A stretch of DNA of 64,000 nt from an uncultured bacterium (GTDB lineage Bacteria > CSSED10-310): contig CAZELM010000002.1 of NCBI GenBank assembly GCA_964512995.1, positions 112,314-176,313 on the forward strand, in the 5' to 3' direction. The notes under the pieces were generated by a model that worked only from the letters and a program-made list of their open reading frames with translations, did not search any database and had not been told where the DNA came from. Each line of letters opens with the position of its first letter. Position 1 is the stretch's first letter. Shown here piece after piece: positions 1 through 62,646 of the stretch. A program made the position numbers and the translations under genes.

Positions 1-1107
1 ATCTGGATTGATGAGGAGAAAGTAGCTGAGATGCCGGATGATCAGGAGTCGATAAAATTCCATCGGCATTTATTACCCGGCCTCCACCATTTCACGCTTT
101 CTTCTCCCGCCATTCAAAATGGCGACCAGATATCGTTGATCTGGGAAACACCTCCAGATCCCAAAAAACGATACTCCACAGAACCCAGAGAACGATCCGT
201 GATACCGGCTCAACATCTCATTGTTCCGCCGATTCCGGAGTTAGCTCTTCCATCGAATACTCAAAAGCCAGCGGGATTCCAATATCAATTCGTCACAAAA
301 ACAAGCTATCGTAACGAGGCGATGAACCGTTTTTATGATCCCTCCATCGTGAAATGTCTACCCGATGGACGGATCATTGCCGCGAACTGGCACAATCGTG
401 TCATCATGGTATTGAGTGAACAAGGGGAACTGCAAACTATATGGGATCCCAATGTATTATCCGATCACCAATTTGATCTGCGCTATCGAATCGATATCAG
501 TGATGACCAGATGATTTATCTGATTGGGAGCCGTAACCAGGGGATGCTTGTATTCGATACTGATGGTAATTTGAAACGGAAAGTACCATTACCCTTGTCT
601 GTTCGGGATATCGCGTGCGCTCCTGAGGGTGACTGTTATCTGCTTGCTCCCAGCACGATATATCGGATTTCGGGACTCGACGGGCAGATCAAATTCTCCG
701 TTGATGTTCGAGGTCAAAATGAGGATGAGTTCTGGGAACCGGAAGCAATCACATCCGACAAAAATGGAAACATCTATCTATTTGATCCTCCCAATCGCAG
801 GCTTTTCATTTACGACAGTACCGGGAAATTCAATCGCTCCTTCCCCTTTCCATGCCCCATTGAAGATACGCTGGGATTAACGATCGATGGGAGAGGCAAC
901 ATTTATATACCGAATGTTATCCAGAATCGAGTATTTGTATTCAATCCAGAAGGCTGCTTGTTGACCGGAGATGAGCAGCACGAGTTTGATCCACTGGATT
1001 CACTCAAGGTTCCCCGTCCCCGCTATATTACATTTTCACCGGACTTGACAAAAATGTATATCGGCAACAGTGAATCCGGCATCTATATGTTTGAAAAAAT
1101 CTGGTGA
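1..1107 (+). CDS. NHL-repeat beta-propeller protein. The frame is open to the window edge, so the gene may start upstream; the first ATG is at 31.
   Basis: Repeated NHL-like blades (e.g. NIYLFDPPNRRLFIYDSTGKF, GNIYIPNVIQNRVFVFNPEG). There is no stop between position 1 and the ATG at 31. The gene is convergent with the membrane-GT operon. Confidence 0.6.
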   Translation: MWIDEEKVAEMPDDQESIKFHRHLLPGLHHFTLSSPAIQNGDQISLIWETPPDPKKRYSTEPRERSVIPAQHLIVPPIPELALPSNTQKPAGFQYQFVTKTSYRNEAMNRFYDPSIVKCLPDGRIIAANWHNRVIMVLSEQGELQTIWDPNVLSDHQFDLRYRIDISDDQMIYLIGSRNQGMLVFDTDGNLKRKVPLPLSVRDIACAPEGDCYLLAPSTIYRISGLDGQIKFSVDVRGQNEDEFWEPEAITSDKNGNIYLFDPPNRRLFIYDSTGKFNRSFPFPCPIEDTLGLTIDGRGNIYIPNVIQNRVFVFNPEGCLLTGDEQHEFDPLDSLKVPRPRYITFSPDLTKMYIGNSESGIYMFEKIW

Positions 1108-1132
1108 AACACCATAAGAACGATTCCATTCA

Positions 1133-3250
1133 TTATTGAGGCAACGGAATTTTGTATGATTGAAACAGCTCCACACCGGAATCATGATTCAGAAATTGCT
1201 CATCATATTTATATAATTCATGTTTCCCATCAGGAAAAATACTTCGCAAACTCTCCAATATCTGATTCCCGTTCTCATCGATTGGCAGCAGAAACAGTGT
1301 GCCAGATGAACCGGATCGCAAGGACGCACCACCACTGGCTGCATTCATCGGGGAATCCGATCCCGGGACACCATCTCGCAATACCGGCAGTTCATCCATC
1401 TTCTGGAAAAACTGAATTGGCAGATCCCTTTCCCCGGGCTGACGATATTGCCCGCAGACAATCCAGATTTTCTGTATCCGTGTATGCGGTTCAAAAAACA
1501 TGTAGGTGTAGTAAGACTGGATATTGTCACGAACGATTTCTGCAAGCCTTCTTTCGGGACCATTCCGGAGAACTTCAGACGCAATTGCATGGTATCGAAA
1601 CGTCGCAAAAGCAGTGGATGACGCGAGCAACATCAACAGAATTCCTGCGATCTGCAACGCATGCCGGTTTACTTTTGCGGGAATTGCTTTAAAATAGGAT
1701 GCACAAACCATAATGAAACTGGCTGCAATAATATAAATCGCCGGATTGGCGCACAGAATTCGACGTGGAGCAACCACTGCGGATGGAATGGTAGGTATTA
1801 TACCGCCGATGAACCATATCATGAGCAGAACGCATCGATAATCCCTGAATCGAGGCAGACACCAACTGATACCACCCAGGAGCGCGACACTCACAGGCCA
1901 CATCAGATATGCACCTTTTTTGGAGAACCACGCACACCCTTCGCCCTCCAGAAACAACCCTCTCAGGGTCAATGATGCATTCCTCAGGATTCGATCCCAT
2001 GCCTGAACCTGGTAATCCGGATGCTCCTCAATCTGGGTATTCAAAAGCTTCACCTTCTCCTTGAATCCAAAAATTCCGATTTTGGGAGAAATGATCAGTG
2101 TCAATAAAACTAAAAATATCACTCCACCGATGAAAACAGGGAACGATTTACGCTTTTGTGTTAACAGTGTATATAGCCAGAAGACAATCAGAATGAAGAC
2201 AATGAATTGTGCGATCACATAAAGAAAAAAGTCCACTGACAGAACGATGAGCGACAAAATGGTCCATGAAATCCGCTGTTCCCGAAGAGCCCGAACGACA
2301 CAATAAACCGATAACGTGACAAAAAGGATGGCAATGGCATGTTCAGTGCTGCTGTATCGGGAGTGCATGATATGCCATGGTGAAATGGCCATCAGAAACG
2401 ACGCCATAAAGCCAGTGTATGTGTTGAATAAATATTCCGCGAGAAGAAACAGAATCAGCACCGTCAATACACCTGTTATCGATGTCACTCCCCGTTGCAA
2501 TAGAAGGCTTGGCCACCAGATGCTGAATATGACCCAGTCAATCAGAATATTAGTACCTTGTTGGTGTGGCCCGAGCAGATAGTTTTTAACATGGCTCCAT
2601 GTCTGACTGAAGGCTATCGGATTCCGGATATCCCAGGAATAATCACGAGCCATCATCGCTGCTTCCATTCCCCATTCTGCGGTATGCTGCGCCTGACCTG
2701 CCGGAATCGTATCCAGTTTATACGCTCGAAAAATAAACGCGATGAGAAGCACTGCTGCCAGGAGCAACCGGCGGTTGATTTTTCCAATTGATTTGGATGA
2801 ATCCTGGCATCGTTTGTCGGGATTCAGTATGGAGGAAATGAACAGGCAGACAGAAGCGATACCTAGAACAACCGGAATGACTGAAAGCGGCTTCCATATA
2901 TACAGACATTGAGCCAGTATGCTCAGAAAAACCCCACTCCAGAGAAACATTCTCCCTGGTTTTCGATCCGCGGAAAATCGATTTTGAAATATAATCAGTA
3001 TCAGAAACAAAAGGCTGAAACTGATTATCTGGATGAAAGGGGATGCGTCGGTGAGTTGATAGATTGCCTCTCCCATTCTTATCAAGGGTTCTATAATTAC
3101 AGCCAACGACCCGAAAACCGGCTGCCTTGGGAATGGCACATTAGCCAGATAAGAGAGGTATTGGATGCAGGCAATGAAGCATAAACACCCGAGAATAATC
3201 TTTCCCGCCAATGGTCTTAGAATGTCTTTCATACACAGATTGAACATCAC
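1133..3250 (-). CDS. Polytopic membrane protein, ArnT/PMT-like (GT-C fold) glycosyltransferase-like, with a ~200-aa C-terminal soluble domain. The start codon is uncertain.
   Basis: More than 10 predicted TM helices. A first-loop motif, FRAYKLDTIPAGQAQHTAEWGMEAAMMA, resembles the (D/E)E..Y..A loop of GT39/GT83 enzymes. It is the last gene of the minus-strand operon. Confidence 0.45.
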   Translation of the reverse strand: MMFNLCMKDILRPLAGKIILGCLCFIACIQYLSYLANVPFPRQPVFGSLAVIIEPLIRMGEAIYQLTDASPFIQIISFSLLFLILIIFQNRFSADRKPGRMFLWSGVFLSILAQCLYIWKPLSVIPVVLGIASVCLFISSILNPDKRCQDSSKSIGKINRRLLLAAVLLIAFIFRAYKLDTIPAGQAQHTAEWGMEAAMMARDYSWDIRNPIAFSQTWSHVKNYLLGPHQQGTNILIDWVIFSIWWPSLLLQRGVTSITGVLTVLILFLLAEYLFNTYTGFMASFLMAISPWHIMHSRYSSTEHAIAILFVTLSVYCVVRALREQRISWTILSLIVLSVDFFLYVIAQFIVFILIVFWLYTLLTQKRKSFPVFIGGVIFLVLLTLIISPKIGIFGFKEKVKLLNTQIEEHPDYQVQAWDRILRNASLTLRGLFLEGEGCAWFSKKGAYLMWPVSVALLGGISWCLPRFRDYRCVLLMIWFIGGIIPTIPSAVVAPRRILCANPAIYIIAASFIMVCASYFKAIPAKVNRHALQIAGILLMLLASSTAFATFRYHAIASEVLRNGPERRLAEIVRDNIQSYYTYMFFEPHTRIQKIWIVCGQYRQPGERDLPIQFFQKMDELPVLRDGVPGSDSPMNAASGGASLRSGSSGTLFLLPIDENGNQILESLRSIFPDGKHELYKYDEQFLNHDSGVELFQSYKIPLPQ

Positions 3251-3376
3251 TTCCTCGACACAATTTAAAACGATTATACGCCATCATCGTTCCATAACGT
3301 AAAATGTTTCTTTTTTTTATCGAAAAATATTTCCAATTGTATGGAAACGTAACGACGTCACTCCCAAATGAACAGA

Positions 3377-6300
3377 TTAAAAATCTGATTTGATCTTGAA
3401 GACACGATAGTGATGTGCGTCAATCACCAGGATATCGCCTGCTTTGTCCAGTGCCAGTCCCATAGGCAGAATGAATGGTTGACTGTCATCCGTTGCTGAT
3501 CGAAATGTCTTGATCAGATTCCCATCCGGATCATAGACAGCAACAAAACGTTTCGTTGGATCAGAGATCCAGATCCGGCCGGACTTATCAGCGACAACGT
3601 ATGGCTCAACAAAAACATCTCCTTCCCACCCATTGAATTTCCATTCTTTGATAAAGTTGCCGTTTGTGTCCAGTATCTGAACTCTGAAATTATGGGTATC
3701 CAGAATGATCAATTGATCATTGAAGACACAAATACCAATGGGAGTGTCAAACTCGCCGGGGCCTTTTCCCAATTTTCCGAAAATGGCGACTTCCTTCCCA
3801 TCATTCGTGTATTTGATGATCCGACCGTTGCCAGTATCTGCAAGGTAAACATATCCTTTGCCATCTGTCGCAATGCCTCTGGGATAGAAGTAGTTCCCCT
3901 GATCCGTTACCCATGTTTTAACAAACTCTCCGGTATGCGTAAATTTCTGGATTCGATTGTTGAATGTATCGGCAACATACACGCCATCGGCATCTACCGC
4001 AACGTCGCACAGGTCGTTGAACTGCCCGGGTTCACTCCCAGTCGTTCCCCAAGCCAAGATCCAGTTTCCATCCGGATCGAATTTCTGTATCCGATGGTTC
4101 CTGAAATCAGCGACATAAATGGTACCATCCGCATCCGTTGTCATCGATCGTGGTTCATCGAACATACCCCGGGACTCTCCCTGACCGCCCTGGAAAACGG
4201 TTCGGGGTGGCATATTTCGAATGGCTGCTGTTCGGGCTTCCTCTGCTTTCTCTGCCTCCTCCTTGCGGCGGACTGCTTCCTGTTCCAATCGTTCCTGGAG
4301 TTTGGCGAGGGCATCACTGTCTGCAGCGACCTTGGCAAAATCGACATTCAACCCATAATCATTGACCTTGTAGATGGTCACATCAGGATTAGCGTATGCT
4401 GGAGTCATATAATCCGTGAGTTCCGCGAACTTGCTGATACCGGCGTCGGAATACTCCGCTTTTTCTGTTTTGCCGACGTAAATATAATCAACCTGATATA
4501 ACCGGAGCAACTCCAATACTTCCGGGACATCCAGGCTTTCGTACATCGTCACGATATCCTGTTTCATCTTTCCGGTATTCCGCTGATATTCCCGCTGATC
4601 GACATGGCTCCACCATCCCAAAACACAGGGTAATCCCGTGTTGGCGGAGATCTTGGCGTATTTATAGAGATAATCCGCTCCAGATGCTTCCAGCAGCGTA
4701 GCATATCCTTTTACATTTTTATTCAGCCAGTCGACAGCGCGATATTCATTTTTCCATTCACCCTGCTTCATATATGCCCAACCGTCCAACGTGAGCGGCA
4801 GTTCCACTCGATTATACTCATCATGGTGTCTTCTGGCTCTGGGACCTTCAACGGTGAAAATCAAACTGCATCCGAGCAATACAATAAATATTGCATTCCA
4901 GACCCACCGGCTGAGCCGGCTCATTCTCTTGATAAATCTCGTTGGATGATCCGGAATACTGATCAATGATCGGTTGGCAAGAAAATAGGCAGATACAATG
5001 CCAAACAGGAACCACGCCTGGAGATAAAACTTGAAAATCGTGTTGAATCGGCGATGATCCCCTCCCTGATAAAAATCCTTGATGAAGAAAATCTCGCATC
5101 CTGCCGTGATCGCAAACGCCATCAAGGCCAGCAGCAGGACGAATACCTGATTGAGTGTCGGCTTTCCGGATAACAGAATATAAATGATCATTACACCAAC
5201 ACAAACACTCCAAAGGAATACGGCATAATCGATCTGGAGCGGGGGGATAAATCTGAAAATGGAATATACTCCAAGAAGACCGAAAAAGATCGCACCTCCA
5301 TAGACATAGATTCTGGTAATGGATCGCCCCTTCTGACGATTGACATGATACCACCACCGGATTACCTGAGTGGTAATAATAAACAAAAACAATCCGAACA
5401 TGGTGATAAATCCGTCCAGATTCGTTGTTTGCCGATGTTTCCAAAGAGTTCCGACACCCATACCCTTGCGAGAAAAATGCATCAGATATGGCAGATACAG
5501 CACGATCGCACCCACGACCAGAACAATACATGGAACAAGAAGCGTCCACAGGAATTGGACATTCTCTATCGACTCCGTCACGGCAAATCTGCTGAACGCA
5601 ATCATTCTTTCTTTGAACGATTTTCGAGGAATTGGAGGTATTGCTGATAGATCGGTAACGGGTGATATTTCTGTCGGCTCCAGACCGGCGACTTCCGGGT
5701 CCTTTCCGCCACATAACTCACGATCCTCATCCGACACCGATTCAGATGCTGCGTCCGTCAATGAATCCTGTGCATTTTCAGTATCAGAACCCGATTCTAG
5801 CTCCTCTTTGTTCAAAATCGATGATTCGGGATCCTCAATCGTCAATGATTCCTCTTCGATCTCCATTTTCTGGGAAACAATCGTATTATCAGAAGAAGCT
5901 GAGGCGAATTCTGCTTGCTTCGCATCTGACACAACGAGATGATCCGTCGGTTCCTCTTCCTTCGTCTGAATAAGATCCGATGAGTCGTCTGAGGACAATG
6001 TAACCTGAGGGATTATCCGTGTCTTCTGATTTTGGATATGTGCGATCGTTTCGACAGGTTCAGAATGGCTGATGGAGCCATAGTCCTTCTCCTGGAGATC
6101 ATCAGCTAGGATTTCTCCGGGAGTTGGTTGCTCCGATGCCGAATTTTCTGAAATATCATCCAGTTCCGGTTGTTCTGCCAGAGCATCCGTTTTGATGTCT
6201 GACGCCCTCGCCGATTCGGGAGATGTTTCTTGGGGAGCGGATTCATGCGGAATCTGCTGGGAAGCAGGTTTTGGGGGTTCGGCTGAAACGATGCGTTTAT

Positions 6301-9268
6301 CCCTGTGCTGGCGTGGTTCAAAAGCTGTAAACCACAGAGAAATCAGCAAAATGATTCCGATGTGAGTCGGGAAATCCCAACTGTTTGTCGGAATCAGAGA
6401 ACCAATCGAGACCAGCATCAGGAAAATGGTTGCATACCGTGTAAATCCAGTTCCGAACAGCGCTATTCCATTTTTCTTGTTTCTGAACAAAACCAGATGC
6501 AACGCAATGATAAACGATGAAATCATCGTAGCGATCGTATGCGCATGAAGATCCATGAAATTATAGGACCAAAACGGAAACTCATGGACAGTCGGATTGA
6601 TGAGTTCATGTGCTGACCTGAAAAAGCGGAAATGATTGGCCTGGCGTCCGAGATTGAGAAAAAGTCCGACAAAACTCTGGAACAGATTGGCCCAGTCTGC
6701 CAGTGCGGTATTTCGTGCAGCAGATGCCCAGATTCGAGCGTACTGAGCGATTCCATCCAGATTCCCGATAAGAATGGTTATCAGCACACTCATCATACCT
6801 GCCCAGATTCGCCGTGTCAGTGCGATGACGATCGAACAGACAGCCAGAGCGACCATGGTTGGTATGGTGATAAAGAAAAGATTATAGCCATAATCCGCGG
6901 TGACTCCAGCAAACTTCGTAATAAAAGCAGCCAGATAATGACCATAATAATAATAATTGATGCCTTCTCCCTGAATCCATGGATCGGCCGGGGGAAAATA
7001 ATCGGCACGGAGAACTGAATTGAGGAATCCAAAATCCATGGAGCTTTCACTCCAGTAAATATCCGGATTATAGGCTTTAAGAAGGGCGAAAATCGTAAAG
7101 ATACAGAAGAATAAAAGTTCATATCCAAGAATTGACCACCAGCGTTCTCTGAAAAACTGCTGAATCGCCTGTTTGCGTGATTGATAAATCATGTAATTGA
7201 TGAAAGCCAATGTCACTAGAACCAGGACGATCAGTGAATTACTGAATGGGAGTAGTTTCAGACTTGGAATCAACCACGCGAAATAACCAGCAATCATCAG
7301 ACCCGTGATTTTGGTCAACGGATAACCGCGGTGTTCAAACTGATGGAAAATCAGAAAAACGAATGGAAAAACAATTAATCCGAGGAGTTCGATGGTTAAG
7401 ATCCATCGCAGAACAGGCATATCGACCGAGCTTCCGACCTCGGAAACCGGGATAGCAGTCAGAATCTCCTCATATGTCAGATTACTGACATCTTTTGGAG
7501 GAGATACGAGATATGGAAGCAATTGTTCGCTGGATAAGTAGGTTTCTTTGACAAAAACATCGACTTTGGCGTGTTCATATACTCCAAAACTTTCATCAGC
7601 CAAGTCATCCCTGAATTTCATAGGTCCCAGGTGAGGTGGATTCGTGAATGATTTTACATAGCGATACCCGAGTCGCTCCGCAAACAACGCCCGATAAAAA
7701 TTGCTGCTGATCGGATACCGATCCGGGACTCGCAGTACGGAGCCATAATGCCGTTTGGATGCGAGGATAACGACATCACCCCATTCCAGGATTTGGGTCA
7801 TATTGCCGGCTTTTCGTGCATTGTCCGGCTCCTGATAGATCTCCAGTTTATCAAAATGGTAATCATCCGGCCGATTATTACCATTCGTTGAAACCGGCAA
7901 TGAATCATCCCAATTGCTTTCCAAAACGATATTGGAGCCTTTGGGGATATTCTCATATACCCAATCAGATGCTACGTGACGCGTATTGGGTTCCGTATAG
8001 ATGGCTGAAAACGCAATACTCCAGAATAATGCACCTCCTATGACAACAACATTCACAAGTCTGGCCCGGAAACGGCCGATGGTATGATGGAGGTCATGAA
8101 GCCAGCGAGCTGCTAGAATGGCGAAAACGGGAAACATGGGGAGCGTATACCGCAAAAATTTCACCTGGAAAGTGCTATTCAGGATGAAGAGCGGTATCAA
8201 CCATGCCAGCAGGATAAGATTCCCCGTGTCGGATCGCTTCCTGAAAACCCGGATAATACCCAAAGCAAAACCGATGTAAGCTGCGAGTCCGAGGGGCAGA
8301 CCCATCGACCAGAAAATCATGTTCCGGATGAGATACAAATAGGGTGTTGTATGGGCATACTGGATGGTGTAGGGAAGCGTGACAGCTCCCGTCACCATTC
8401 GCTTTTGTTCATTTACATCACTGTAGAATTTATCGAAGTCCAGGATCCAATAGGGCATACATGCCGTCATCACCACAACAGACAGCAATCCTGCTGCAAC
8501 CCAATGTGCCCAGGAGTTCCATCCTTTTCGCTTCCCATTGGCAACAGCGAGCACCTGAGCGAGAAAAAAGGCCAGATATATCGGACTGCTGCTGACCTTT
8601 GTCGCCATGGCCATACCGATGAACAAAGCAGAATAGTAGTAATCACGATTACGGTCACTCTGCACAATACGAACGATGAAGAGCAGTGCACACGTTATCA
8701 GAAATGTCTGAGGACCATCAACCACATAAAAATGGGATTGCTGGATCGATAGTACGGTGAAGGCAAACAAGGCTGCTGCGATCAATCCGATTTTACGATT
8801 GTATATCGTTTGAGCCAGATAGAAAATGACCAGGATCGTACATGCAGATAAAAATGCAGATACCGCTCGGCCTGTCAGAACCATGCTCTCGAAATTATTC
8901 ATTCTCGGGAAGGCTTCACGGATGGCGGATTTGACTTCCGGAGAAAAATCAATGGAAGTAAGCGCTCCAGAGATGCCTTTATTGATGATATCCAGTGAAA
9001 ACAGAATGCCTTTCAGAAAATACATCGGTAAGGAACCATACGCAAAGAATTTGGGATTGGGTTCCTGCCAACTCAAATCCGTCACTTGATACATGATCTG
9101 GCGTTCATCGGGATGGAAATAACTCGGGATTCCCCATTGGATGCCAAATAAACGAAACCCAAGGCCGGCGATGAAAATAACAGCGAGCAGCCAATTGCGT
9201 CCTTGCCGGTACTGTGTTTTGGTTTCTCCTCCCAGTGATTCCATACTACCAGCCTCCATCCTTATCAT
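3377..9268 (-). CDS. Giant (1963 aa) multidomain envelope protein. Domain order: N-terminal ArnT/PMT-like GT-C domain, a split Chlor_Arch_YYY (DUF2298) domain, a ~230-aa acidic disordered insert, a coiled coil, and a C-terminal six-bladed NHL propeller.
   Basis: A FHPDERQ first-loop motif follows TM1. The DYFPPADPWIQGEGINYYYYGHY motif matches KYFPPKDPWYVGETINYFYYGHY in the neighbouring 796-aa protein. KDFYQGGDHRRFNTIFKFYLQAW is paralogous to KDAYGKSLERQNTIFKFYYQAW. The C-terminus carries NHL blades (NHRIQKFDPDGNWILAWGTTGSEPGQF...). Its start overlaps the upstream stop by 4 nt (ATGA). Confidence 0.7.
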   Translation of the reverse strand: MIRMEAGSMESLGGETKTQYRQGRNWLLAVIFIAGLGFRLFGIQWGIPSYFHPDERQIMYQVTDLSWQEPNPKFFAYGSLPMYFLKGILFSLDIINKGISGALTSIDFSPEVKSAIREAFPRMNNFESMVLTGRAVSAFLSACTILVIFYLAQTIYNRKIGLIAAALFAFTVLSIQQSHFYVVDGPQTFLITCALLFIVRIVQSDRNRDYYYSALFIGMAMATKVSSSPIYLAFFLAQVLAVANGKRKGWNSWAHWVAAGLLSVVVMTACMPYWILDFDKFYSDVNEQKRMVTGAVTLPYTIQYAHTTPYLYLIRNMIFWSMGLPLGLAAYIGFALGIIRVFRKRSDTGNLILLAWLIPLFILNSTFQVKFLRYTLPMFPVFAILAARWLHDLHHTIGRFRARLVNVVVIGGALFWSIAFSAIYTEPNTRHVASDWVYENIPKGSNIVLESNWDDSLPVSTNGNNRPDDYHFDKLEIYQEPDNARKAGNMTQILEWGDVVILASKRHYGSVLRVPDRYPISSNFYRALFAERLGYRYVKSFTNPPHLGPMKFRDDLADESFGVYEHAKVDVFVKETYLSSEQLLPYLVSPPKDVSNLTYEEILTAIPVSEVGSSVDMPVLRWILTIELLGLIVFPFVFLIFHQFEHRGYPLTKITGLMIAGYFAWLIPSLKLLPFSNSLIVLVLVTLAFINYMIYQSRKQAIQQFFRERWWSILGYELLFFCIFTIFALLKAYNPDIYWSESSMDFGFLNSVLRADYFPPADPWIQGEGINYYYYGHYLAAFITKFAGVTADYGYNLFFITIPTMVALAVCSIVIALTRRIWAGMMSVLITILIGNLDGIAQYARIWASAARNTALADWANLFQSFVGLFLNLGRQANHFRFFRSAHELINPTVHEFPFWSYNFMDLHAHTIATMISSFIIALHLVLFRNKKNGIALFGTGFTRYATIFLMLVSIGSLIPTNSWDFPTHIGIILLISLWFTAFEPRQHRDKRIVSAEPPKPASQQIPHESAPQETSPESARASDIKTDALAEQPELDDISENSASEQPTPGEILADDLQEKDYGSISHSEPVETIAHIQNQKTRIIPQVTLSSDDSSDLIQTKEEEPTDHLVVSDAKQAEFASASSDNTIVSQKMEIEEESLTIEDPESSILNKEELESGSDTENAQDSLTDAASESVSDEDRELCGGKDPEVAGLEPTEISPVTDLSAIPPIPRKSFKERMIAFSRFAVTESIENVQFLWTLLVPCIVLVVGAIVLYLPYLMHFSRKGMGVGTLWKHRQTTNLDGFITMFGLFLFIITTQVIRWWYHVNRQKGRSITRIYVYGGAIFFGLLGVYSIFRFIPPLQIDYAVFLWSVCVGVMIIYILLSGKPTLNQVFVLLLALMAFAITAGCEIFFIKDFYQGGDHRRFNTIFKFYLQAWFLFGIVSAYFLANRSLISIPDHPTRFIKRMSRLSRWVWNAIFIVLLGCSLIFTVEGPRARRHHDEYNRVELPLTLDGWAYMKQGEWKNEYRAVDWLNKNVKGYATLLEASGADYLYKYAKISANTGLPCVLGWWSHVDQREYQRNTGKMKQDIVTMYESLDVPEVLELLRLYQVDYIYVGKTEKAEYSDAGISKFAELTDYMTPAYANPDVTIYKVNDYGLNVDFAKVAADSDALAKLQERLEQEAVRRKEEAEKAEEARTAAIRNMPPRTVFQGGQGESRGMFDEPRSMTTDADGTIYVADFRNHRIQKFDPDGNWILAWGTTGSEPGQFNDLCDVAVDADGVYVADTFNNRIQKFTHTGEFVKTWVTDQGNYFYPRGIATDGKGYVYLADTGNGRIIKYTNDGKEVAIFGKLGKGPGEFDTPIGICVFNDQLIILDTHNFRVQILDTNGNFIKEWKFNGWEGDVFVEPYVVADKSGRIWISDPTKRFVAVYDPDGNLIKTFRSATDDSQPFILPMGLALDKAGDILVIDAHHYRVFKIKSDF

Positions 9269-11655
9269 TTCCCGCTGTGGCGGTACAGATAGCCCGGTTT
9301 TCCATCCGCTTCTTTTACATCAATCAGTTTCTCCAGAAATGTATTGAATTTATCGAAATCGCCACTGGGATACTGATCATGTTCCAACTTGCCGACATAG
9401 ACATAATCGACCTGATATTTATCGAGTAACCGCTTGACTGCATCGATATCCGAGCTTGTATAGATTTCTTTTACATCCTGGACTCTCTCATTCACTTTCT
9501 GCCAAGTTCCATCTCTCCAGATATTTTCATGATTCGCCCATCCGAGGATGGTGCTGAGTCCGGTAGCAGCGGAGATCCGTCCGTAGTGGGAGAATGCAGG
9601 GCCAGTCGCTTCCACAACAACGTCTTCTTTCGGGTTGGCGTGTTCGCGCAAATAGCGAATGGCTTCATAATCTCCTTTATGTTGCCAGGACATGTAATAG
9701 GTTCCGTCCATTGTTATGGCACTCCAGGGATTATCTCCCTTGAATCCCGCAAAATGATTACACTTGACCGCAGTCCCGAAAATCGGGAATGCCAGTGTAC
9801 ATACAAATAACAGACGAAAAGCAGGCTCCCAAAGTAATGAAATGGTTTTAACAGTCCGCTCACGAATCCAGTACACAGCATACGCGGATGCAATCCCGCA
9901 AAAAATCCATGCCTGATAATAAAATTTGAAGATGGTATTCTGACGTTCCAGTGATTTCCCATAGGCATCTTTGATATAGAAAAATTCGCAACCCAGGAGA
10001 ATCGCCAGGACAACCAAAAACAAAGCCAATGCAAAAAATTTTTCCCTGATAAATTCATCTGACAGCTTCAGAGGAATCTGAAGTATCAAAATGACCAGCA
10101 GGATGCATAAGGCGATCATAAATCGTTCAAACAGAATAAAACAGAAGATGAACATGCTCAAATATCCGAACAGAACAATCGGTTGAATACGTGTCGGCAA
10201 TGTTTTGTACTTTGGATACAACAGCACACCGATGAATGACATCATGCAAAAAAATGGAAAACCATAGATCGTCAGGAAATCACCCGCCAATGTCCATTGA
10301 ACGCTTGAAACGACACAAACATCTTTTACGCCTGCCGGATGAAAATTGAGAGTATATGGCAGGAACAAGATGATTGCGAGAGCGATTACCATGCCAGCAG
10401 CCACCCACGACTGCAGCATCGGATACCATAACGGCCGTGAAATCAGGGGATCTGATTCCGATGTCTTCCGCTTCCAGAAACTGGCTATGATTTCTGTAAT
10501 GGGAGAGACAACCCATTTACCGATCGAAATGGGTTCATCGGATGGTATTTTCTGTGTGTTCTGGAGACGGAGAAAAAATTGCCGTCCCAATACCAGGCCT
10601 GCCACCATCAGAGACATATAGGTTGGAGTATCCCATGTGTTCGCTGCCGGAATCGCTCCCAGTGCGATCGCTGCAATCACGAGACGGAAAACCTTTTCCC
10701 TTCCTTTACCCAGTAACGTAAAACCATCTCCAGATAATCGGAAAAACTCCAGAATAACAGCCAGCACCAGCAGGGAAAATGGCACGACGTTCATATGAGC
10801 ATGAAGATCCCCGAGAATGTAGCTCCAAAATGGGAATTCATTGATCGTGACATCGATTCCTTCCCGGACAATAACCCGGGAACTCATCCACCAATTGAAC
10901 CATGTGAACGGATAAAATTGCTTTTCTCCGGAAAAAATCGCAGGCAGATTGGCAATCAGTTGATTGATACCATCCAGATTGCCGATGAATGCTACAAACA
11001 GACCACCCAGAATTCCATATTTCAACCGGTTAATGAGACCATACGAAATACCGGTTGCCATGATGAGTGTGATCGCAAACAAAAAAGCGACTCCCAGATT
11101 ATAGGTGTATTCCGGAGCCAGTCCGGATAATTTGGTCAGCATTGCGATCTGGTAATGGCCGTAATAAAAATAATTGATCGTTTCACCGACATACCATGGA
11201 TCTTTTGGTGGGAAATATTTGCTGTTCAATATGCCAGTAAGAAATGCGAAATCCGGCATTTTTTCGGTCTGTGAAATATCGGCATTGCACATCCGAATGA
11301 TCCCGAAAAAGATAAACGCACCCAGAAAAAGCAGTTCGGTGGTGATCACGAGCCGTCGGCTGGACATTAAAAATGTTTTAAATGTCGAAAGGGGTTCTGA
11401 TCGAAGCAGAATCCATCCGGAAGCACCCATGATGATCAATGAGGCCAGCACTGACAAGAAAGAAAACGGTAGAATATGGAGGCTGCACAGGAACCAGTTG
11501 ATAAAACAGACCAGTGAAAGCCCTAGTCCCTTGGAAAGGATATAGCCTTTATCCGGGAATGTCCGAAAAAAACGCTGAGACAGAGGCCATGCAGCAAGGC
11601 CGATAACGAGGATGATTACCCACCAAATCATGATATCGATCAATCCGGATACCAT
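9265..11655 (-). CDS. Chlor_Arch_YYY / DUF2298-family polytopic membrane protein (796 aa)
   Basis: Highly hydrophobic, with an INYFYYGHY motif. Its C-terminal soluble region (ATGLSTILGW...YQVDYVYVGKLEHDQYP) is paralogous to the corresponding region of the 1963-aa protein. Confidence 0.7.
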   Translation of the reverse strand: MVSGLIDIMIWWVIILVIGLAAWPLSQRFFRTFPDKGYILSKGLGLSLVCFINWFLCSLHILPFSFLSVLASLIIMGASGWILLRSEPLSTFKTFLMSSRRLVITTELLFLGAFIFFGIIRMCNADISQTEKMPDFAFLTGILNSKYFPPKDPWYVGETINYFYYGHYQIAMLTKLSGLAPEYTYNLGVAFLFAITLIMATGISYGLINRLKYGILGGLFVAFIGNLDGINQLIANLPAIFSGEKQFYPFTWFNWWMSSRVIVREGIDVTINEFPFWSYILGDLHAHMNVVPFSLLVLAVILEFFRLSGDGFTLLGKGREKVFRLVIAAIALGAIPAANTWDTPTYMSLMVAGLVLGRQFFLRLQNTQKIPSDEPISIGKWVVSPITEIIASFWKRKTSESDPLISRPLWYPMLQSWVAAGMVIALAIILFLPYTLNFHPAGVKDVCVVSSVQWTLAGDFLTIYGFPFFCMMSFIGVLLYPKYKTLPTRIQPIVLFGYLSMFIFCFILFERFMIALCILLVILILQIPLKLSDEFIREKFFALALFLVVLAILLGCEFFYIKDAYGKSLERQNTIFKFYYQAWIFCGIASAYAVYWIRERTVKTISLLWEPAFRLLFVCTLAFPIFGTAVKCNHFAGFKGDNPWSAITMDGTYYMSWQHKGDYEAIRYLREHANPKEDVVVEATGPAFSHYGRISAATGLSTILGWANHENIWRDGTWQKVNERVQDVKEIYTSSDIDAVKRLLDKYQVDYVYVGKLEHDQYPSGDFDKFNTFLEKLIDVKEADGKPGYLYRHSGK

Positions 11656-11740
11656 CTATAACCCTCCATAAATGAAACTCCGACCCTAATGATCATTCGC
11701 CTGTATGCATTCATGCTTCTTTCTGCCAGGCAGGAGCAGG

Positions 11741-14719
11741 CTACAGAATGTCCTTAGTGAATATTTGTACCCGGTTGTTCTGAGATTCTGTAATATAAAC
11801 CCGATCCGGTCCGATCGCAATTCCCAAAGGTTGACCGAATTCGCCGTTTGCCGTGCCCTGTTTCCCCCAGAATGATTTGAATGTTCCATCCAATCCAAAA
11901 ATCTGAATACGATTGCTTTGCGAATCGGTCAGATAGAGCAGTTCAGACTGAGCATCGATTGCTGCATATGGTTCGGTGTAGTAATAGTCCCAACCGAATA
12001 CCTGGAAGGTATTCACCTGATGACCGTCTTTATCATAGACCACTACACGTTGATTTGCTGTATCCGCTACGAAAAGCCTTCCGAGGTTATCAATCGCCAG
12101 TCCAACCGGTTCCGCAAACTGATTCACACCATCTCCCTTTGTTCCCACAGACCATTGTTCCGCCCCATTTCGATTGAATTTCTGGATCCGGTGGTATCCT
12201 GTGTTGACGACATAGATAAAGCCATCTTTATCGACAACCACTTTTTTCGGTGCCCAGAACAGATTGGAATCACCGAATTTCATCTTAAAGTTGCCATTGG
12301 TATCGAATTTTTGAATGCGATGATTCCAGGTGTCCGCGATATAGACCTCTCCCCGGGAATCCACAAAAATACCTGTCGGCTGATCGAACTGACCGTCTTC
12401 TTTTCCATTCTTGCCCCAGGCGAGGAGGAATTTTCCGGTCGGATCAAATTTCTGAATGCGATGGTTTTTGTTATCCACAACATACACATTCCCCTCAGTA
12501 TCGACAGCAATATCTTTCGGAGAATTGAATTTGCCATCGGTACTGCCAAACCCACCGATTTCCAGGATATTCTGCTTGGTGACGGATTGGGATGTCGGGG
12601 ATTCCTTCCGTTTTGGCGCTTCAGGGGGTTGTCCGATATCGACACTATACTGGAATTTGGCGGCATCCTTCCGAACGAACATACAGATCTCCTGAGATCC
12701 ATATAACTGAGGTTCAAAACGTTCCCGCAATACCACCCATCTGAATGCGTTCCTCCAGGGGTTTCCCTTCATCAAATCCTGGCGTTTGGGCAGATACCAT
12801 GCTCGCAACCCATACCGTCGGGCGACATATTTATCAGCGAGTTTTTCTGAAAATTTATGCCGGTCTTCCCAATTACAGATCACAATGAGATGTCGTTCGG
12901 TATCGACATTCTGGCCGTAGCTTACTCCCGTCCAGTCCCTGAGATACCAATAGAACGGCCATGTTGCATGTCCAGTAATCACCATCGGGAGTTTGGTTCC
13001 TTCTCCAGTCCAGAAACCGAGATCTTCCATCTCCTTGATCATCTTGGGAACATCATAGGTCGTCTGCACGTAGACAAGCTGTTCTGTTGGATCAGCTTCA
13101 TGATACCAGCACAATTGAATGGATGTATGGAGACAATACGCGATCATCAACCCAAACAGATTCATAACAACCAGTCTGGCCCATTTGAAGTTTGATTTCT
13201 TGTTCTGAAAGACTTCGACCAGTTGAATGGCCGCAAAAAAGATCATCGGTGTCAGAATATGCATCACCAGCCAGGGAACTTTCTCCTGGAGATATGAATA
13301 GATGAGATAAGCCAACATCGACCACCAGATCAGAAATCCTTTGAGATAGGCTTTTTCCTTCAGATAATCCAGGACGATAATGATTCCGGCAACCAGAACA
13401 CCCAGTGCAATGATCAGATGGCCATTCGTGAACAGATCTTTTTTCGTGACATGCGCAATGGGTGCCATTTTAAACTCAAAGATGCTGTATGCCACTGCAA
13501 AAAAGATAACATAGCCGGCCGAAAAAACAGCAGTGCGACGTGCTCCACGAATTATCACACTGACCAGCGTGACAACAGCAGGAATGAATCCGTAGATCAG
13601 CATCAGATGATGGTAATAATGAAATGGTCCTGCGATTCGTGCAATACTGTGCTGGTGAAGCCAATAGGTATACCATTCATACATCCCACCCCAGAATCCT
13701 TTGAGGTTTGTGAAAAGAGTGGTGTATAAAAGAACGAAAATTCCAATGAATATGAACATGCTCACTGCAAAAACATGGCTGTCAAGAAAAAATGACGGAT
13801 TCAATCCCCAGATTTTGGATTTTACATCATTGGATCGAACTCTCTCCCCCAGATAGACCATATAGAAAATCAAAACAAAGGCGAATGCATAAACAGCGAT
13901 CCAATACGTATGAACGACTGCATCCCAGTTATCCACTCTTGATTTTAAAAACTGATTTCCAAGTGCATATAAAATGAAGCTGATCCCCCAGATCGAAATG
14001 AATACCATGACTTTTGCAGGCAACGAATACTCCTCGATCACCTGAACAATTGCTCGGAATCCACCCCTCCGTCCATCCGTCTTTTCAAAAGCTTTAACCA
14101 GTGTGAACAGAAGACCGAACGAAAAGATGATGAATGCCTGCACAAACGCATTTTCTTTAGTACATACCAACATCGATAATGATGCAGAAGCCCAGTATAT
14201 CTGCCAAGGTTTCCGGTCGATAAACCACAAATAAACAAAAAATACAAGTAGAATAGCCCACATCGTAAAGAATGGATCTTCACGCATGAATCGTTGAAAA
14301 TACATAAAAACCGGATTAATGGCACATAGCCATCCTGCCATCAGAGCGACATCCTTCGGCAGCCACTTCCGTATGAAAAACAAAAATAATGTAATGACAA
14401 TGCCCGTTAATGCAGGCAGGATTCGTACGGAGTAGTTGGAAACACCAAACAGAAATAACGTGAGCTGAGAAAAGTGGAACATGAATGGTCCATGTTGCAT
14501 GGGATCATATTGATAGCCCTGCCCGACATGAAAATTCCATATATATTTTGAATAAAGGCTTTCATCATGATGGAACGGCTTATCACCGAGATGGTGGAAT
14601 CGTGTGATCAAGATAAAAATGAATAACCCCAGCCATAGCCATGTTCTGAAATCGATTCTAAACATCAATCCATTGGAAGACGTATCCTTCTCGGCTGCAA
14701 CCTTTACGTTATTGCCCAT
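11741..14719 (-). CDS. ArnT/PMT-like GT-C membrane glycosyltransferase-like protein (992 aa) with a C-terminal NHL beta-propeller
   Basis: An RFHHLGDKPFHHDESLYSKY first-loop motif follows TM1, with about 13 TM helices. The C-terminal ~290 aa carries six NHL blades (NHRIQKFDPTGKFLLAWGKNGKEDGQFDQPTGIFVD...). It is the first gene of the operon. Confidence 0.65.
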   Translation of the reverse strand: MGNNVKVAAEKDTSSNGLMFRIDFRTWLWLGLFIFILITRFHHLGDKPFHHDESLYSKYIWNFHVGQGYQYDPMQHGPFMFHFSQLTLFLFGVSNYSVRILPALTGIVITLFLFFIRKWLPKDVALMAGWLCAINPVFMYFQRFMREDPFFTMWAILLVFFVYLWFIDRKPWQIYWASASLSMLVCTKENAFVQAFIIFSFGLLFTLVKAFEKTDGRRGGFRAIVQVIEEYSLPAKVMVFISIWGISFILYALGNQFLKSRVDNWDAVVHTYWIAVYAFAFVLIFYMVYLGERVRSNDVKSKIWGLNPSFFLDSHVFAVSMFIFIGIFVLLYTTLFTNLKGFWGGMYEWYTYWLHQHSIARIAGPFHYYHHLMLIYGFIPAVVTLVSVIIRGARRTAVFSAGYVIFFAVAYSIFEFKMAPIAHVTKKDLFTNGHLIIALGVLVAGIIIVLDYLKEKAYLKGFLIWWSMLAYLIYSYLQEKVPWLVMHILTPMIFFAAIQLVEVFQNKKSNFKWARLVVMNLFGLMIAYCLHTSIQLCWYHEADPTEQLVYVQTTYDVPKMIKEMEDLGFWTGEGTKLPMVITGHATWPFYWYLRDWTGVSYGQNVDTERHLIVICNWEDRHKFSEKLADKYVARRYGLRAWYLPKRQDLMKGNPWRNAFRWVVLRERFEPQLYGSQEICMFVRKDAAKFQYSVDIGQPPEAPKRKESPTSQSVTKQNILEIGGFGSTDGKFNSPKDIAVDTEGNVYVVDNKNHRIQKFDPTGKFLLAWGKNGKEDGQFDQPTGIFVDSRGEVYIADTWNHRIQKFDTNGNFKMKFGDSNLFWAPKKVVVDKDGFIYVVNTGYHRIQKFNRNGAEQWSVGTKGDGVNQFAEPVGLAIDNLGRLFVADTANQRVVVYDKDGHQVNTFQVFGWDYYYTEPYAAIDAQSELLYLTDSQSNRIQIFGLDGTFKSFWGKQGTANGEFGQPLGIAIGPDRVYITESQNNRVQIFTKDIL

Positions 14720-18942: not shown

Positions 18943-19026
18943 GTGTGCGAGGAGGGGGAGTTGAACCCCCACGTTAAAAACACTGGATCCTAAGTCCAGC
19001 GCGTCTGCCAATTCCGCCATCCTCGC
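18943..19026 (-). tRNA. tRNA-Leu (anticodon TAG), long variable arm
   Basis: Reverse complement reads GCGAGGATGGCGGAATTGGCAGACGCGCTGGACTTAGGATCCAG...GGGGGTTCAACTCCCCCTCCTCGCA. The anticodon loop is CTTAGGA. Confidence 0.8.
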
Positions 19027-19053
19027 TTGAAACGCCGATTCATCATCATCGAT

Positions 19054-19128
<75 letters not shown>

Positions 19129-19181
19129 CGTTCAGGAAATCTGCTTCGCTCGTTTTCTGAAACGGATTCCCTAAAAAATTG

Positions 19182-19256
19182 GGTGAGTGAAGGGATTTGA
19201 ACCCTCGACCTCCTGATCCACAGTCAGGCGCTCTAACCAACTGAGCTACACTCACC
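19182..19256 (-). tRNA. tRNA-His (anticodon GTG) with G-1
   Basis: Reverse complement reads GGTGAGTGTAGCTCAGTTGGTTAGAGCGCCTGACTGTGGATCAGG...GGGTTCAAATCCCTTCACTCACC. The anticodon loop is CTGTGGA, and an extra 5' G is present as expected for His. Confidence 0.8.
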
Positions 19257-19315
19257 ATAATAATCTGAACCTACCGACCTGATATGTGGAATCTAAATTC
19301 CGCATTGAATCTGCT

Positions 19316-19389
<74 letters not shown>

Positions 19390-19421
19390 ATCACCAACAG
19401 GTCGCATCATTATCAATGGGT

Positions 19422-19495
<74 letters not shown>

Positions 19496-19533
19496 ATGCG
19501 TTCCGTATTAAACGGCTGCGCAAGCTTCATCTT

Positions 19534-45702: not shown

Positions 45703-45839
45703 CAGTGGCAGATTTGAACAGCGCCGGTTTCAGTTATACCGGGAGATTTACCCTTTCAAACCAGCCACAACAAGACAATTCAGACGTATTTGAAAAATAA
45801 CTCGCCCGTTTCACGATCAACGATGAATTCAACCACCAC

Positions 45840-47771: not shown

Positions 47772-47863
47772 AATACTCCTCGGTCCTTCGGTTATAATAC
47801 GGATTGGATCGGCTCTTGACGATCGATTCCATCCACCGTTAATCTTACATGGGAGGATAAATC

Positions 47864-49333: not shown

Positions 49334-49448
49334 TCCCGTTTGTCATTCTCCAAAGATGAGGGTCTCATGGCATCCGAAACTCCCATTTTCGCGGGAATGA
49401 CACTCCCGCCAGAAAACGGGAACCAGCCATCTGACAATCCTCCCCGAA

Positions 49449-50000
49449 TTATTGGAGTGTCGATTTTGCTTTGCGAACCATGTCAATACCGGCAGCCAGA
49501 GCGCGCCGGTTGAGTTCTTCCGTGCCTCGGGGAACGCGAGCCAGCACGGCAGATTCCAGAGCATCGTGGGTGACGACATTGGAGATCTCCACGATTGCGC
49601 CCAGAGCGATGATATTGGCCACGATAATTTTACCGACTTTTTCCTGTGCGGTTTGAAGAATCGGCAACGGAAAGACCGTATATTGACCCTGGGGGATGTT
49701 GTTCACCCGGGAGTTGTCAACGACCAGAATACCTTGTTCCTTGAGATCCGGAATATATTTATTACAGGCTTCCTGGGTCAATGCCAGAAGCAGATCGATA
49801 TTGGTCGCTTTGGGATAAAAAATATCTTCATCGGATATGATGACATCCGATTTACTGGCTCCGCCTCTCGCCTCCGGCCCGTAAGATTGACTCTGTGTGG
49901 CGTTCTTCTCATCATAAATTGCCGCCGCCTCCGCCAGAATAACTCCAGCCAGAATCAGCCCCTGCCCACCTGCTCCACTAAGCCTCAATTCACATCTCAT
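49449..50000 (-). CDS. korC: 2-oxoacid:ferredoxin oxidoreductase gamma subunit
   Basis: LSGAGGQGLILAGVILAEAAAIY...SYGPEARGG is gamma-subunit (POR/KOR) family sequence. Confidence 0.8.
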   Translation of the reverse strand: MRCELRLSGAGGQGLILAGVILAEAAAIYDEKNATQSQSYGPEARGGASKSDVIISDEDIFYPKATNIDLLLALTQEACNKYIPDLKEQGILVVDNSRVNNIPQGQYTVFPLPILQTAQEKVGKIIVANIIALGAIVEISNVVTHDALESAVLARVPRGTEELNRRALAAGIDMVRKAKSTLQ

Positions 50001-50031
50001 TCAGTAGTTCTCCGAAATAAAAATAGTCAGT

Positions 50032-52306: not shown

Positions 52307-52318
52307 CCAGAAGCGCGT

Positions 52319-53185: not shown

Positions 53186-53192
53186 TTTTTAA

Positions 53193-53244
53193 CCTCACCC
53201 CCAACCCCTCTCCATGAATGGCGAGGGGCCCATGGGTATGTTCC
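53193..53244 (+). repeat. REP-like palindromic intergenic element, copy 1
   Basis: CCTCACCCCCAACCCCTCTCCATGAATGGCGAGGGGCC. A hairpin forms between CCCCTCTCCAT and ATGGCGAGGGG. Confidence 0.7.
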
Positions 53245-53257
53245 TTTATTTTTTCGA

Positions 53258-62621: not shown

Positions 62622-62646
62622 CATTCGAGATGGCCATGAAACTCCC

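Follow-up and report, generated by a model that had tools for sequence, protein, structure and literature searches.

The locus considered here raises the question of what a run of very large membrane proteins, two of which end in NHL beta-propellers, does at the envelope of an uncultured bacterium (GTDB lineage CSSED10-310). It lies in a window of 64,000 nt of contig CAZELM010000002.1 (assembly GCA_964512995.1, forward strand), to which all positions below refer. A preliminary description, made from the letters alone, proposed an envelope glycosylation machine of GT-C enzymes. That part is well supported by HMM searches, predicted topology and fold matches, and none of the outcomes named there as refuting it was obtained. 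The cluster is an unusual domain combination within a well-known enzyme superfamily, not a new type of machine.

The four minus-strand open reading frames reported earlier (992, 796, 1963 and 705 aa; here A to D) were recovered, and all four products are indeed polytopic membrane proteins (Table 1). A fifth gene, E, adjoins D and makes the cluster larger than had been said. General translational coupling was not found: only the B/C junction is tight, A and B being 85 nt apart and C and D approximately 126 nt. The ATGA overlap described at 9265-9268 is present as sequence, but position 9244 is the likelier start of C, since GGAGG precedes an ATG there by 8 nt, the product of an independent gene call has 1955 aa, and the B-C gap in close relatives amounts to 14-18 nt. 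The ATG of A has GAGGAG 8 nt upstream. Consensus scans of the region gave 19 promoter-like sites where shuffled sequence leads one to expect 27, and 15 terminator-like sites against 13.6 expected; since this last count is not materially higher than in shuffled sequence, the hairpin between D and E is weak evidence for a terminator. A phage, mobile-element or defence origin was rejected in view of the genomic flanks: they consist of housekeeping genes (tig, clpP, engB and folD, with a tRNA cluster), their synteny extends to relatives, and composition does not shift.

Table 1. Positions of the genes and predicted features of the cluster within the window
Feature	Residues (aa)	Positions	Strand	Remarks
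Gene A		11741..14719	-	992 aa
A membrane domain, ArnT-like	1-539	13103..14719	-	approximately 15 TM helices
A H51-D52-E53 codons		14561..14569	-	first external loop; part of HHDESLY
A extracytoplasmic alpha/beta domain and Pro/Ser/Thr linker	540-715	12575..13102	-	model secondary structure; outside by loop parity
A six-bladed NHL beta-propeller	716-992	11744..12574	-	
Gene B		9265..11655	-	796 aa
B INYFYYGHY signature	160-168	11152..11178	-	first long external loop
B C-terminal extracytoplasmic alpha/beta domain	639-796	9268..9741	-	AglB/STT3-like
Gene C		3377..9268	-	1963 aa as maximal ORF; 1955 aa from likely start at 9244
C N-terminal GT-C membrane domain	1-425	7994..9268	-	approximately 11 TM helices; PMT_2 match, hydropathy and positive-inside rule
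C H52-P53-D54-E55 codons		9104..9115	-	first external loop; part of FHPDERQ
C soluble domain between membrane modules	426-614	7427..7993	-	predicted outside; hydropathy
C YYY/DUF2298 module	615 to ~1640	4349..7426	-	paralogue of B
C acidic low-complexity insert	984-1232	5573..6319	-	net charge approximately -35; composition
C NHL propeller	1690-1963	3380..4201	-	NHL matches
Gene D		1133..3250	-	705 aa (704 from ATG)
Candidate terminator		1102..1114	-	short hairpin and T-run between convergent D and E; consensus scan only
Gene E, 3' part		31..1107	+	convergent to D; truncated by window start

In HMM searches the models PMT_2, DUF2298, TIGR03662, TIGR03663 and NHL all gave matches above their cut-offs. 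Protein A scored 258.6 bits with TIGR03663 (curated NCBIfam cut-off 126.25) and 37.1 bits with PMT_2, over the Pfam cut-off, and its C-terminus matched NHL with an E-value of 7e-43. The NHL domain has six blades in a closed propeller, and the AF2 model of the whole protein has a pLDDT of 91.2. Residues R40, H51, D52, E53, H76, G77, R99 and R143 of A do not vary among 50 TIGR03663-type sequences, at least 90% of which also keep P78. These residues agree with the family signature, which we take from the TIGRFAMs description to be an invariant DE, an HGP and two Arg near the N-terminus. A is a member of the TIGR03663/Agl23 family, modelled as an ArnT-like GT-C with an outward-facing NHL propeller.

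Protein B, which stands alone as a DUF2298/Chlor_Arch_YYY module, reached 522.8 bits with TIGR03662 (cut-off 300.25) and 338.8 bits with DUF2298 (PF10060), also over its cut-off. Fold searches with its AF2 model (pLDDT 94.1, pTM 0.95) identified a GT-C fold, including a membrane core and a C-terminal globular domain of the STT3/AglB type, and all eight significant Foldseek matches of the YYY model are DPY19, AfAglB or human STT3A. Neither B nor C is matched by the STT3/AglB HMMs, WWDYG is absent throughout both, and a DUF2298 profile run against the PDB retrieved nothing relevant (best match a chemokine receptor, E 1e-3). The homologue alignment yields the consensus VVLEATG...TVLGWxxHExxWRG, in which LEATG may take the position of WWDYG, judging by a visual alignment to STT3 that serves as a lead only. 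Comparison of 50 homologues showed that Y164 and G166 of the YYY signature are invariant and Y162 nearly so, as are E131 and, nearly so, D152. Eighteen YYY residues are invariant, including E131, W154, Y164, E273, H285, D563 and R571. Model helices and the positive-inside rule predict 16 TM helices with both termini outside, and in this topology all 18 residues map to external loops, the external domain or, in the case of N186, the outward end of a TM helix. In the model YYY/DUF2298 has the GT-C fold, and its external domain resembles that of AglB.

Protein C unites, by its sequence matches, PMT_2-type GT-C, YYY and NHL modules in one chain. The PMT_2 match (51.2 bits, over cut-off) spans residues 133-266; the scores with DUF2298 and TIGR03662 are 285.4 and 439.1 bits (cut-off of the latter 300.25), and the C-terminus matches NHL with E 3e-29, the second of the two terminal NHL domains that had been reported. 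Its N-terminal membrane domain matches ArnT weakly, and HPDE is present in 14 of 14 aligned full-length C-type N-terminal domains from four phyla. The YYY module shares 31-32% identity with B (E 1e-51 and 8e-37); it departs from the 18 invariant positions at one, retaining 17, and reads INYYYYGHY where B has INYFYYGHY, in line with the signature noticed earlier in two proteins. The soluble domain ahead of it is predicted to lie outside because the N-out topology of the YYY module requires this, and the acidic insert corresponds to loop 369-409 of B, on the cytoplasmic, Lys/Arg-rich side of the predicted topology. The propellers of C and A are 35% identical (E 7e-50).

The TIGR03663 model matched neither the N-terminus of C nor D. 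Protein D scored 35.2 bits with PMT_2, over cut-off, and 21 bits with the STT3 HMM, below its threshold of 24.5. MIR and PF02366 gave no match in A to D, PMT_2 being the broader model that does match. An ArnT/PMT-like acidic motif had been attributed to three proteins; it stands for A and C but not for D, whose 'HTAEWGMEAAMM' is not that motif. D itself has QHTA in place of xDEA. D and its relatives, which form 11 representative clusters at E<=1e-30 among 1.84 billion, carry QH(T/A)A where generic PMT_2 proteins have xDE(A/T); the next Glu is not conserved, His190 is. As judged from these alignments D represents a narrow, divergent PMT_2-like GT-C subfamily that lacks the canonical Asp-Glu, the catalytic dyad, and probably has an accessory or non-canonical part in the cluster. 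Gene E is complete in the locus of one relative (L002), where it encodes 1012 aa with PMT_2 and a degenerate propeller; orthologues at two further loci (L004 and L005) scored 34.5 and 36.1 bits with PMT_2, and the E propeller is 24% identical to the NHL domain of A (E 1e-15). In BLASTP the PMT_2 domains of A and C did not resemble each other significantly, and D gave only a weak local match to C (E 4e-5), so that these are not recent duplicates.

Topology was assigned from AlphaFold-model helices and family-wide positive-inside statistics, and for C and D by hydropathy peak-picking. Lys/Arg density is 0.068 outside versus 0.168 inside in the YYY family and 0.081 versus 0.165 in the TIGR03663 family. 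Since the side poor in Lys/Arg carries both the motifs and the NHL domains, we infer that the conserved motifs of A, B and C, including the acidic first loops in A and C, face outside together with the propellers, whose extracytoplasmic position had been anticipated.

The A-B-C triad is kept in six relatives, with identities of B down to 35%. At one of these loci (L087) the triad genes overlap by 4 nt, and directly upstream lies a small GT2 gene together with an MsbA-like ABC pair. A survey of the YYY loci of 80 other species showed an adjacent Agl23-like gene at 39, a GT-C-YYY fusion at 16 and either of the two at 47. A TIGR00374 flippase-like gene occurs at 24/80, a small GT2 (best matches ArnC, PgfS, PpgS and AglJ) at 13/80, and the arrangement Glf-GT2-YYY at 6/80. 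The pairing of TIGR03662 with TIGR03663, which the preliminary description mentioned, is correct and has long been recognised; the TIGR03663 family as first described adjoins a TIGR03662/YYY gene, and A does likewise. DUF2298/YYY was found in at least 587 species genomes among 185,579 scanned, with carriers in Chloroflexota, human-gut Blautia and other Lachnospiraceae, and Archaea. The claim of uniqueness could not be upheld, as GT-C-NHL fusions are common and multi-GT-C clusters of this type occur in Chloroflexota and Sumerlaeota. TIGR03663+NHL fusions are plentiful in Chloroflexota, where one paralogue has PA14, a family usually viewed as carbohydrate-binding, beside NHL; one such fusion gene from Anaerolineales is solitary. 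Archaeal TIGR03663 members measure approximately 590-660 aa and lack a propeller; a profile built from them matched Methanoperedens-type sequences only, and at those loci neither YYY nor GT2 genes lie alongside. Our literature search found no functional study on DUF2298, TIGR03662/3, PF10060 or GT-C+NHL; papers matching 'YYY domain' concern the unrelated Y_Y_Y domain.

The models of the cluster match ArnT, AglB/STT3, DPY19, PMT and Aft. In the YYY modules the modelled fold is nearest to AglB/STT3/PglB and DPY19, with an AglB-like C-terminal domain, but YYY shows no detectable sequence similarity to them, has no WWDYG, and has three extra N-terminal TM helices that turn the N-terminus outside. 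Identity to ArnT (GT83)/PMT_2 is approximately 11% and the C-terminal domains differ; lipid A, the substrate of ArnT, is unlikely here since archaea and Chloroflexota have these families too. PMT (with MIR) and TMTC (with TPR) likewise fuse a GT-C membrane domain to a luminal or external repeat domain, and these MIR and TPR domains are thought to engage the acceptor protein; A to D, however, have neither, and a literature search for a GT-C-fused NHL propeller in an acceptor role found no characterised precedent. The relatives that pair YYY with a small GT2 and flippase-like or ABC genes resemble the GtrA/B/C, ArnC/ArnT and Pgf systems, whereas in the present cluster GT2 and flippase genes lie outside and up to five GT-C genes stand together.

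Starting from family membership, fold, motif conservation and synteny, we propose, at a probability of roughly two in three, that the cluster performs extracytoplasmic glycosylation, in which several GT-Cs would use polyprenyl-phosphate-linked sugars on a surface glycan or glycoprotein, the acceptor being suggested by analogy and context. A, the N-terminus of C and probably E would supply ArnT-like modules, in which the (H)DE motif is external, and these would work alongside the YYY/DUF2298 modules formed by B and by the central part of C. A polyprenyl-phosphate sugar as donor is suggested by what adjoins YYY in relatives, namely genes for small GT2s, Glf and flippase-like proteins; since small GT2 genes neighbour YYY there, analogy suggests monosaccharide-phosphates rather than pyrophosphate-linked oligosaccharides as the YYY donors. 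In this window the cluster neither contains nor adjoins a gene for donor synthesis (a GT2 polyprenyl-phosphate sugar synthase) or for a flippase, and donor synthase and flippase would be encoded elsewhere in the genome. The three-module set is present twice, split over A (GT-C and NHL) and B (YYY) and fused in C; because both arrangements occur, A and B probably form a complex equivalent to C. By analogy with known systems the outward NHL propellers would most likely hold the acceptor. The absence of donor-synthesis and flippase genes from the cluster and of a catalytic dyad from D speaks against this proposal.

The Agl23-like modules, A and perhaps the N-terminus of C, could instead translocate lipid-linked sugars and leave transfer to the YYY modules alone, in which case the strongly conserved YYY-Agl23-like gene order would reflect a flippase-transferase couple. 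Haloarcula hispanica Agl23, the sole studied TIGR03663 member, is described as a putative hexose-P-dolichol flippase that rescues a yeast rft1 deletion, translocates M5GN2-PP-Dol in liposomes when purified, and works on the glycans of the S-layer glycoprotein (PMC11182771). A passes TIGR03663, which NCBI names 'flippase activity-associated protein Agl23', and shares its invariant HDE, HG(P) and Arg residues, but adds a 450-aa external region with the six-bladed NHL domain, and its modelled fold and motif point to a transferase. On balance we regard translocation by these modules as unlikely. Doubtful too, though slightly less so, is an extended form of the glycosylation proposal. It takes YYY to be an unrecognised class of protein glycosyltransferases, akin in fold to OST and DPY19 but with an acceptor rule of its own (no WWDYG), that, with ArnT-like Agl23-family partners and external acceptor-binding NHL propellers, would constitute a general surface-protein glycosylation system. 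If true, this system would be common to Chloroflexota, CSSED10-310, Sumerlaeota, gut Lachnospiraceae and some Archaea, and Agl23 would be a Dol-P-hexose-dependent transferase or transferase subunit, not a dedicated flippase.

The acceptor could also be a growing polymer. Stepwise building of a cell-wall or capsule polysaccharide or a lipoglycan, by analogy with the mycobacterial arabinofuranosyltransferases Emb/Aft and with the propellers as carbohydrate-binding modules, is a serious possibility, if short of an even chance; it concerns the acceptor alone and is compatible with the main mechanism. EmbCAB and AftA-D belong to other families and phyla, and they have CBMs where NHL propellers are found here. 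Against a polysaccharide stand the Foldseek matches, whose only significant members modify proteins (DPY19, AglB, STT3A), the AglB-like external domain of YYY and the reported activity of Agl23 on S-layer glycoprotein glycans (PMC11182771). We consider it very improbable that some or all of the proteins, despite a GT-C-like fold, transfer no sugar and act for example as a scaffold, receptor or sensor: the external loops of A, B and C contain invariant acidic and His residues, HMM searches found no signalling output domain in A to D, and the genes of relatives adjoin GT2, Glf and flippase-like genes. Such roles do have precedents: PIG-U and GAB1 of the GPI transamidase show the fold in this way, and PknD is a sensor with NHL.

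For DUF2298, a function-unknown family, the analysis provides a fold, outward invariant residues and recurrent partners (Agl23-like GT-Cs, small GT2s, flippase-like genes and Glf), and with these a testable hypothesis for a large family that includes environmentally dominant Chloroflexota and human-gut bacteria. It also sharpens a question of archaeal and eukaryotic glycobiology, whether Agl23 is a flippase or a transferase. Elsewhere in the window, at 45840..47771, a further protein with PMT_2 and TPR is encoded.

Four ORFs, A (992 aa), B (796 aa), C (1963 aa) and D (705 aa), lie in the same direction on the minus strand of the region 1133-14719, as had been described, and HMM searches for PMT_2 (a family of the membrane glycosyltransferase superfamily GT-C), DUF2298, TIGR03662/TIGR03663 and NHL all found matches among them; such scores cannot be of chance origin. 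The cluster is bigger than these four genes, with a fifth, E, lying convergent, and is flanked by the housekeeping genes folD, engB, clpP, tig, a five-tRNA cluster, rph and an amidase. Identical copies of the cluster proteins occur in one NCBI contig and one Logan assembly, and their closest named relatives come from CSSED10-310, an uncultured candidate phylum whose members are predicted Gram-negatives (PMC8248873).

Features of the cluster and of the remainder of the window
Feature	Coordinates	Strand	Description
A		-	TIGR03663 ("flippase activity-associated protein Agl23") 258.6 bits (cut-off 126); PMT_2 37 bits; NHL E 7e-43
B		-	TIGR03662/Chlor_Arch_YYY 522.8 bits (cut-off 300); DUF2298 338.8 bits
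C		-	PMT_2 51 bits at aa 133-266; DUF2298 285 and TIGR03662 439 bits, split by insert; NHL E 3e-29
C, insert	5573..6319	-	248 aa, Ser/Glu/Asp/Ala/Pro-rich, net charge about -35
D		-	PMT_2 35 bits; STT3 match sub-threshold
D, His-Thr/Ala-Ala site	2677..2688	-	aa 189-192
E, C-terminal part	31..1107	+	1012-aa protein; orthologues match PMT_2 and have a degenerate propeller
Five tRNA genes	18945..19496	-	Leu(tag), Arg(tcg), His(gtg), Arg(tct), Pro(tgg); between tig and rdgB/rph
740-aa protein	22709..24931	+	spermidine-synthase-like domain at aa 276-403
GT2 and GT4	41924..45702	+	789-aa GT2 with roughly 490-aa N-terminal extension, overlapping 573-aa GT4 ORF
Sixth GT-C-like gene	45840..47771	-	643 aa; N-terminal PMT_2 32.5 bits, C-terminal TPR repeats
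Two GT4 ORFs	61650..63909	+	mutual overlap 293 nt

Tight spacing is limited to the B/C junction, with A and B 85 nt apart and C and D about 126 nt. The ATGA reported at 9265-9268 exists, but a better start for C is the ATG at 9244, with GGAGG 8 nt upstream, and an independent gene call gives C 1955 aa. The B/C gap is 14-18 nt in three close relatives, and a more distant relative (L087) shows 4-nt overlaps at both junctions of the A-B-C triad. Co-transcription is plausible; a promoter and terminator consensus scan of the cluster region gave no signal for or against it.

B belongs to the Chlor_Arch_YYY/DUF2298/TIGR03662 family, hereafter YYY. Its AlphaFold model, built with 50 homologues as input, has a pLDDT of 94.1 and a pTM of 0.95, and the significant Foldseek matches number only eight, each of them to DPY19, AfAglB or human STT3A (E 1e-7 to 6e-5). 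A sequence profile search found no PDB relatives, and the WWDYG motif that defines oligosaccharyltransferases (OST) is absent from YYY, in spite of the likeness in fold. Because of these three results YYY is, as modelled, a separate GT-C family with a fold nearest the protein-modifying OST/DPY19 branch. In the alignment of homologues its external domain has invariant W706, H709 and W713, within LGWxxHExxWR.

The model of A (pLDDT 91.2) consists of three parts, one of which is an external alpha/beta domain, and all 50 bacterial and archaeal TIGR03663 sequences compared share H51-D52-E53, H76-G77 and three Arg. In C, the HPDE of the N-terminal GT-C domain is invariant across four phyla and the YYY domain retains all but one of the 18 invariant YYY positions; it is interrupted by the acidic insert, in a loop predicted to be cytoplasmic that in B has only about 40 residues.

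Topology was derived by rule from model helices and Lys/Arg loop counts over each family alignment. YYY has 16 TM helices with both termini on the low-K/R side (0.068 vs 0.168), and since its invariant-residue loops and AglB-like domain are on that side they are predicted to be outside. TIGR03663 has 15 TM helices, with the N-terminus predicted inside and the HDE loop and C-terminal NHL region outside (0.081 vs 0.165). Counts and model helices together predict the propellers, and the acidic loops of A and C, to be extracytoplasmic, as the preliminary description had expected. The order of modules in C fits this topology: an N-in/C-out 11-TM GT-C domain is followed by an external soluble domain and then the N-out YYY; the 11th helix was assigned by homology to A, peak-picking having given 10.

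Identical A-B-C architectures were found in four CSSED10-310-type genomes and two deeper relatives (B 35-37% identical), while the position of D varies (upstream of A in two genomes, missing in one). With one genome scanned per species, at least 587 species carry YYY genes; carriers among the matches listed include Chloroflexota classes, Sumerlaeota, Lachnospiraceae (including cultured Anaerocolumna) and one archaeon. Neighbourhoods were counted for the 80 best YYY loci. An Agl23-like gene adjoins YYY in 39 of the 80, mostly immediately downstream, 16 have a stand-alone YYY gene after a GT-C-YYY fusion, and 47 have an Agl23-like gene, a GT-C-YYY fusion or both. GT-C-NHL fusions are present in 9/80 and a TIGR00374 "flippase-like" (PF03706) gene in 24/80. 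TIGR03663+NHL fusions abound in Anaerolineales, and in a 1208-aa Chloroflexota protein (L017, 17324..20950) PMT_2 occurs together with a PA14 domain and NHL repeats; a PMT2/PA14 gene adjoining DUF2298 is listed for Chloroflexi bacterium 44-23 (PMC8756737).

Gene context offers clues to the donor. Thirteen of the 80 loci have a small GT2 directly upstream of YYY with sub-threshold top matches to ArnC, PgfS, PpgS and AglJ, which are polyprenyl-phosphate glycosyltransferases. Directly before A-B-C, L087 (2184..6749) encodes a small GT2, with AglJ as its best match, and a pair of MsbA-like ABC half-transporters; the 1002-1146-aa proteins after the triad in L086 and L087 gave no family match. UDP-galactopyranose mutase (Glf)-GT2-YYY runs, six of the 80 and all from Lachnospiraceae, suggest a YYY transferase dependent on polyprenyl-phosphate-galactofuranose. 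Their hosts are cultured and uncultured; in L027 (Anaerocolumna sp. MB42-C2, NZ_CP133190.1, 8013..12271) Glf, an overlapping small GT2 and YYY stand in series, as also in L042, L050, L058, L065 and L082. Dehalococcoidia have a conserved operon, (RNase III) - FtsY - YYY - Agl23-like - TIGR00374 flippase-like (PF03706) - PRK07233/HpnE-like FAD oxidoreductase (L009, L011, L022, L023, L030, L034, L039, L041, L044, L046, L063, L066, L070, L071, L075 and others), whose oxidoreductase might act in polyprenol modification.

The best-supported reading is that the cluster encodes several GT-C transferases that act outside the cytoplasm and would use polyprenyl-phosphate sugars as donors, with two module types cooperating, one ArnT-like with a DE motif and one OST/DPY19-like (YYY). 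Three modules are present twice, split over A (GT-C+NHL) and B (YYY) and fused in C (GT-C+YYY+NHL), and from this Rosetta-stone relationship an A-B complex is therefore predicted. For the outward-facing propellers the best explanation is that they hold the acceptor, as an analogy with the CBMs of Emb, the MIR domains of PMTs and the TPRs of TMTC suggests; we infer their role, the sugar and the acceptor alike. OST/DPY19 affinity and the role of Agl23 in S-layer glycans favour a protein as the acceptor, whereas an AftA match, PA14 and Glf favour a glycan polymer; either could apply.

The main rival holds that Agl23-family modules, including A, are flippases of lipid-linked sugars. Haloarcula hispanica Agl23, a putative hexose-P-dolichol flippase, rescues yeast deleted for rft1 and, in liposomes, flips M5GN2-PP-Dol (PMC11182771). 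However, the ArnT-like fold, invariant external HDE and large external domain point to transferases, and many operons have a separate flippase-like gene besides the Agl23-like one. We argue for a transferase role of the TIGR03663 proteins, or at any rate for a role beyond flipping alone.

The TIGR03662/TIGR03663 pairing mentioned in the preliminary description has long been recognised. Its claim of uniqueness does not hold: a member of one of the families has been studied, and public data contain many multi-GT-C clusters and GT-C-NHL fusions. The YYY-NHL triple fusion was seen only in the CSSED10-310 clade and deep relatives. This fusion is new, as are the model-based assignment of YYY as a putative N-out GT-C with an AglB-like domain and without WWDYG, the split/fused module logic of A+B versus C, the donor clues from gene context and the DE-less subfamily of D.

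In D, 'HTAEWGMEAAMM' had been taken for a GT-C acidic motif; alignments with a few close relatives and more distant PMT_2 proteins show instead that QH(T/A)A replaces the canonical xDE(A/T) and that the next Glu varies (E/V/L/Q/Y). The His-Thr/Ala-Ala site is conserved in D relatives where other PMT_2 GT-Cs have Asp-Glu. The subfamily is very small, with 11 representative clusters out of 1.84 billion matching at E<=1e-30. GxAxHAA is common to a wider group of about 700-aa proteins. From these alignments, D and its HTA/HAA-bearing relatives may form a GT-C lineage that is inactive or differs in catalysis, and the place of D in the system is probably accessory or non-canonical.

No donor-synthase or flippase gene was found beside the cluster in the window; further glycosyltransferases lie 27-50 kb along it, including the PMT_2+TPR protein, which has a TMTC-like architecture. 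The overlap of the two GT4 ORFs may be due to wrongly called starts or a frameshift. The first 40 kb have a G+C of about 0.45, which increases to 0.50-0.54 at 42000..58000, where glycosyltransferases, PFOR/OFOR subunits, succinyl-CoA ligase and a pair of ArsA/Get3-like ATPases are encoded. The size of the 740-aa protein suggests extra, possibly membrane, regions either side of its spermidine-synthase-like domain.
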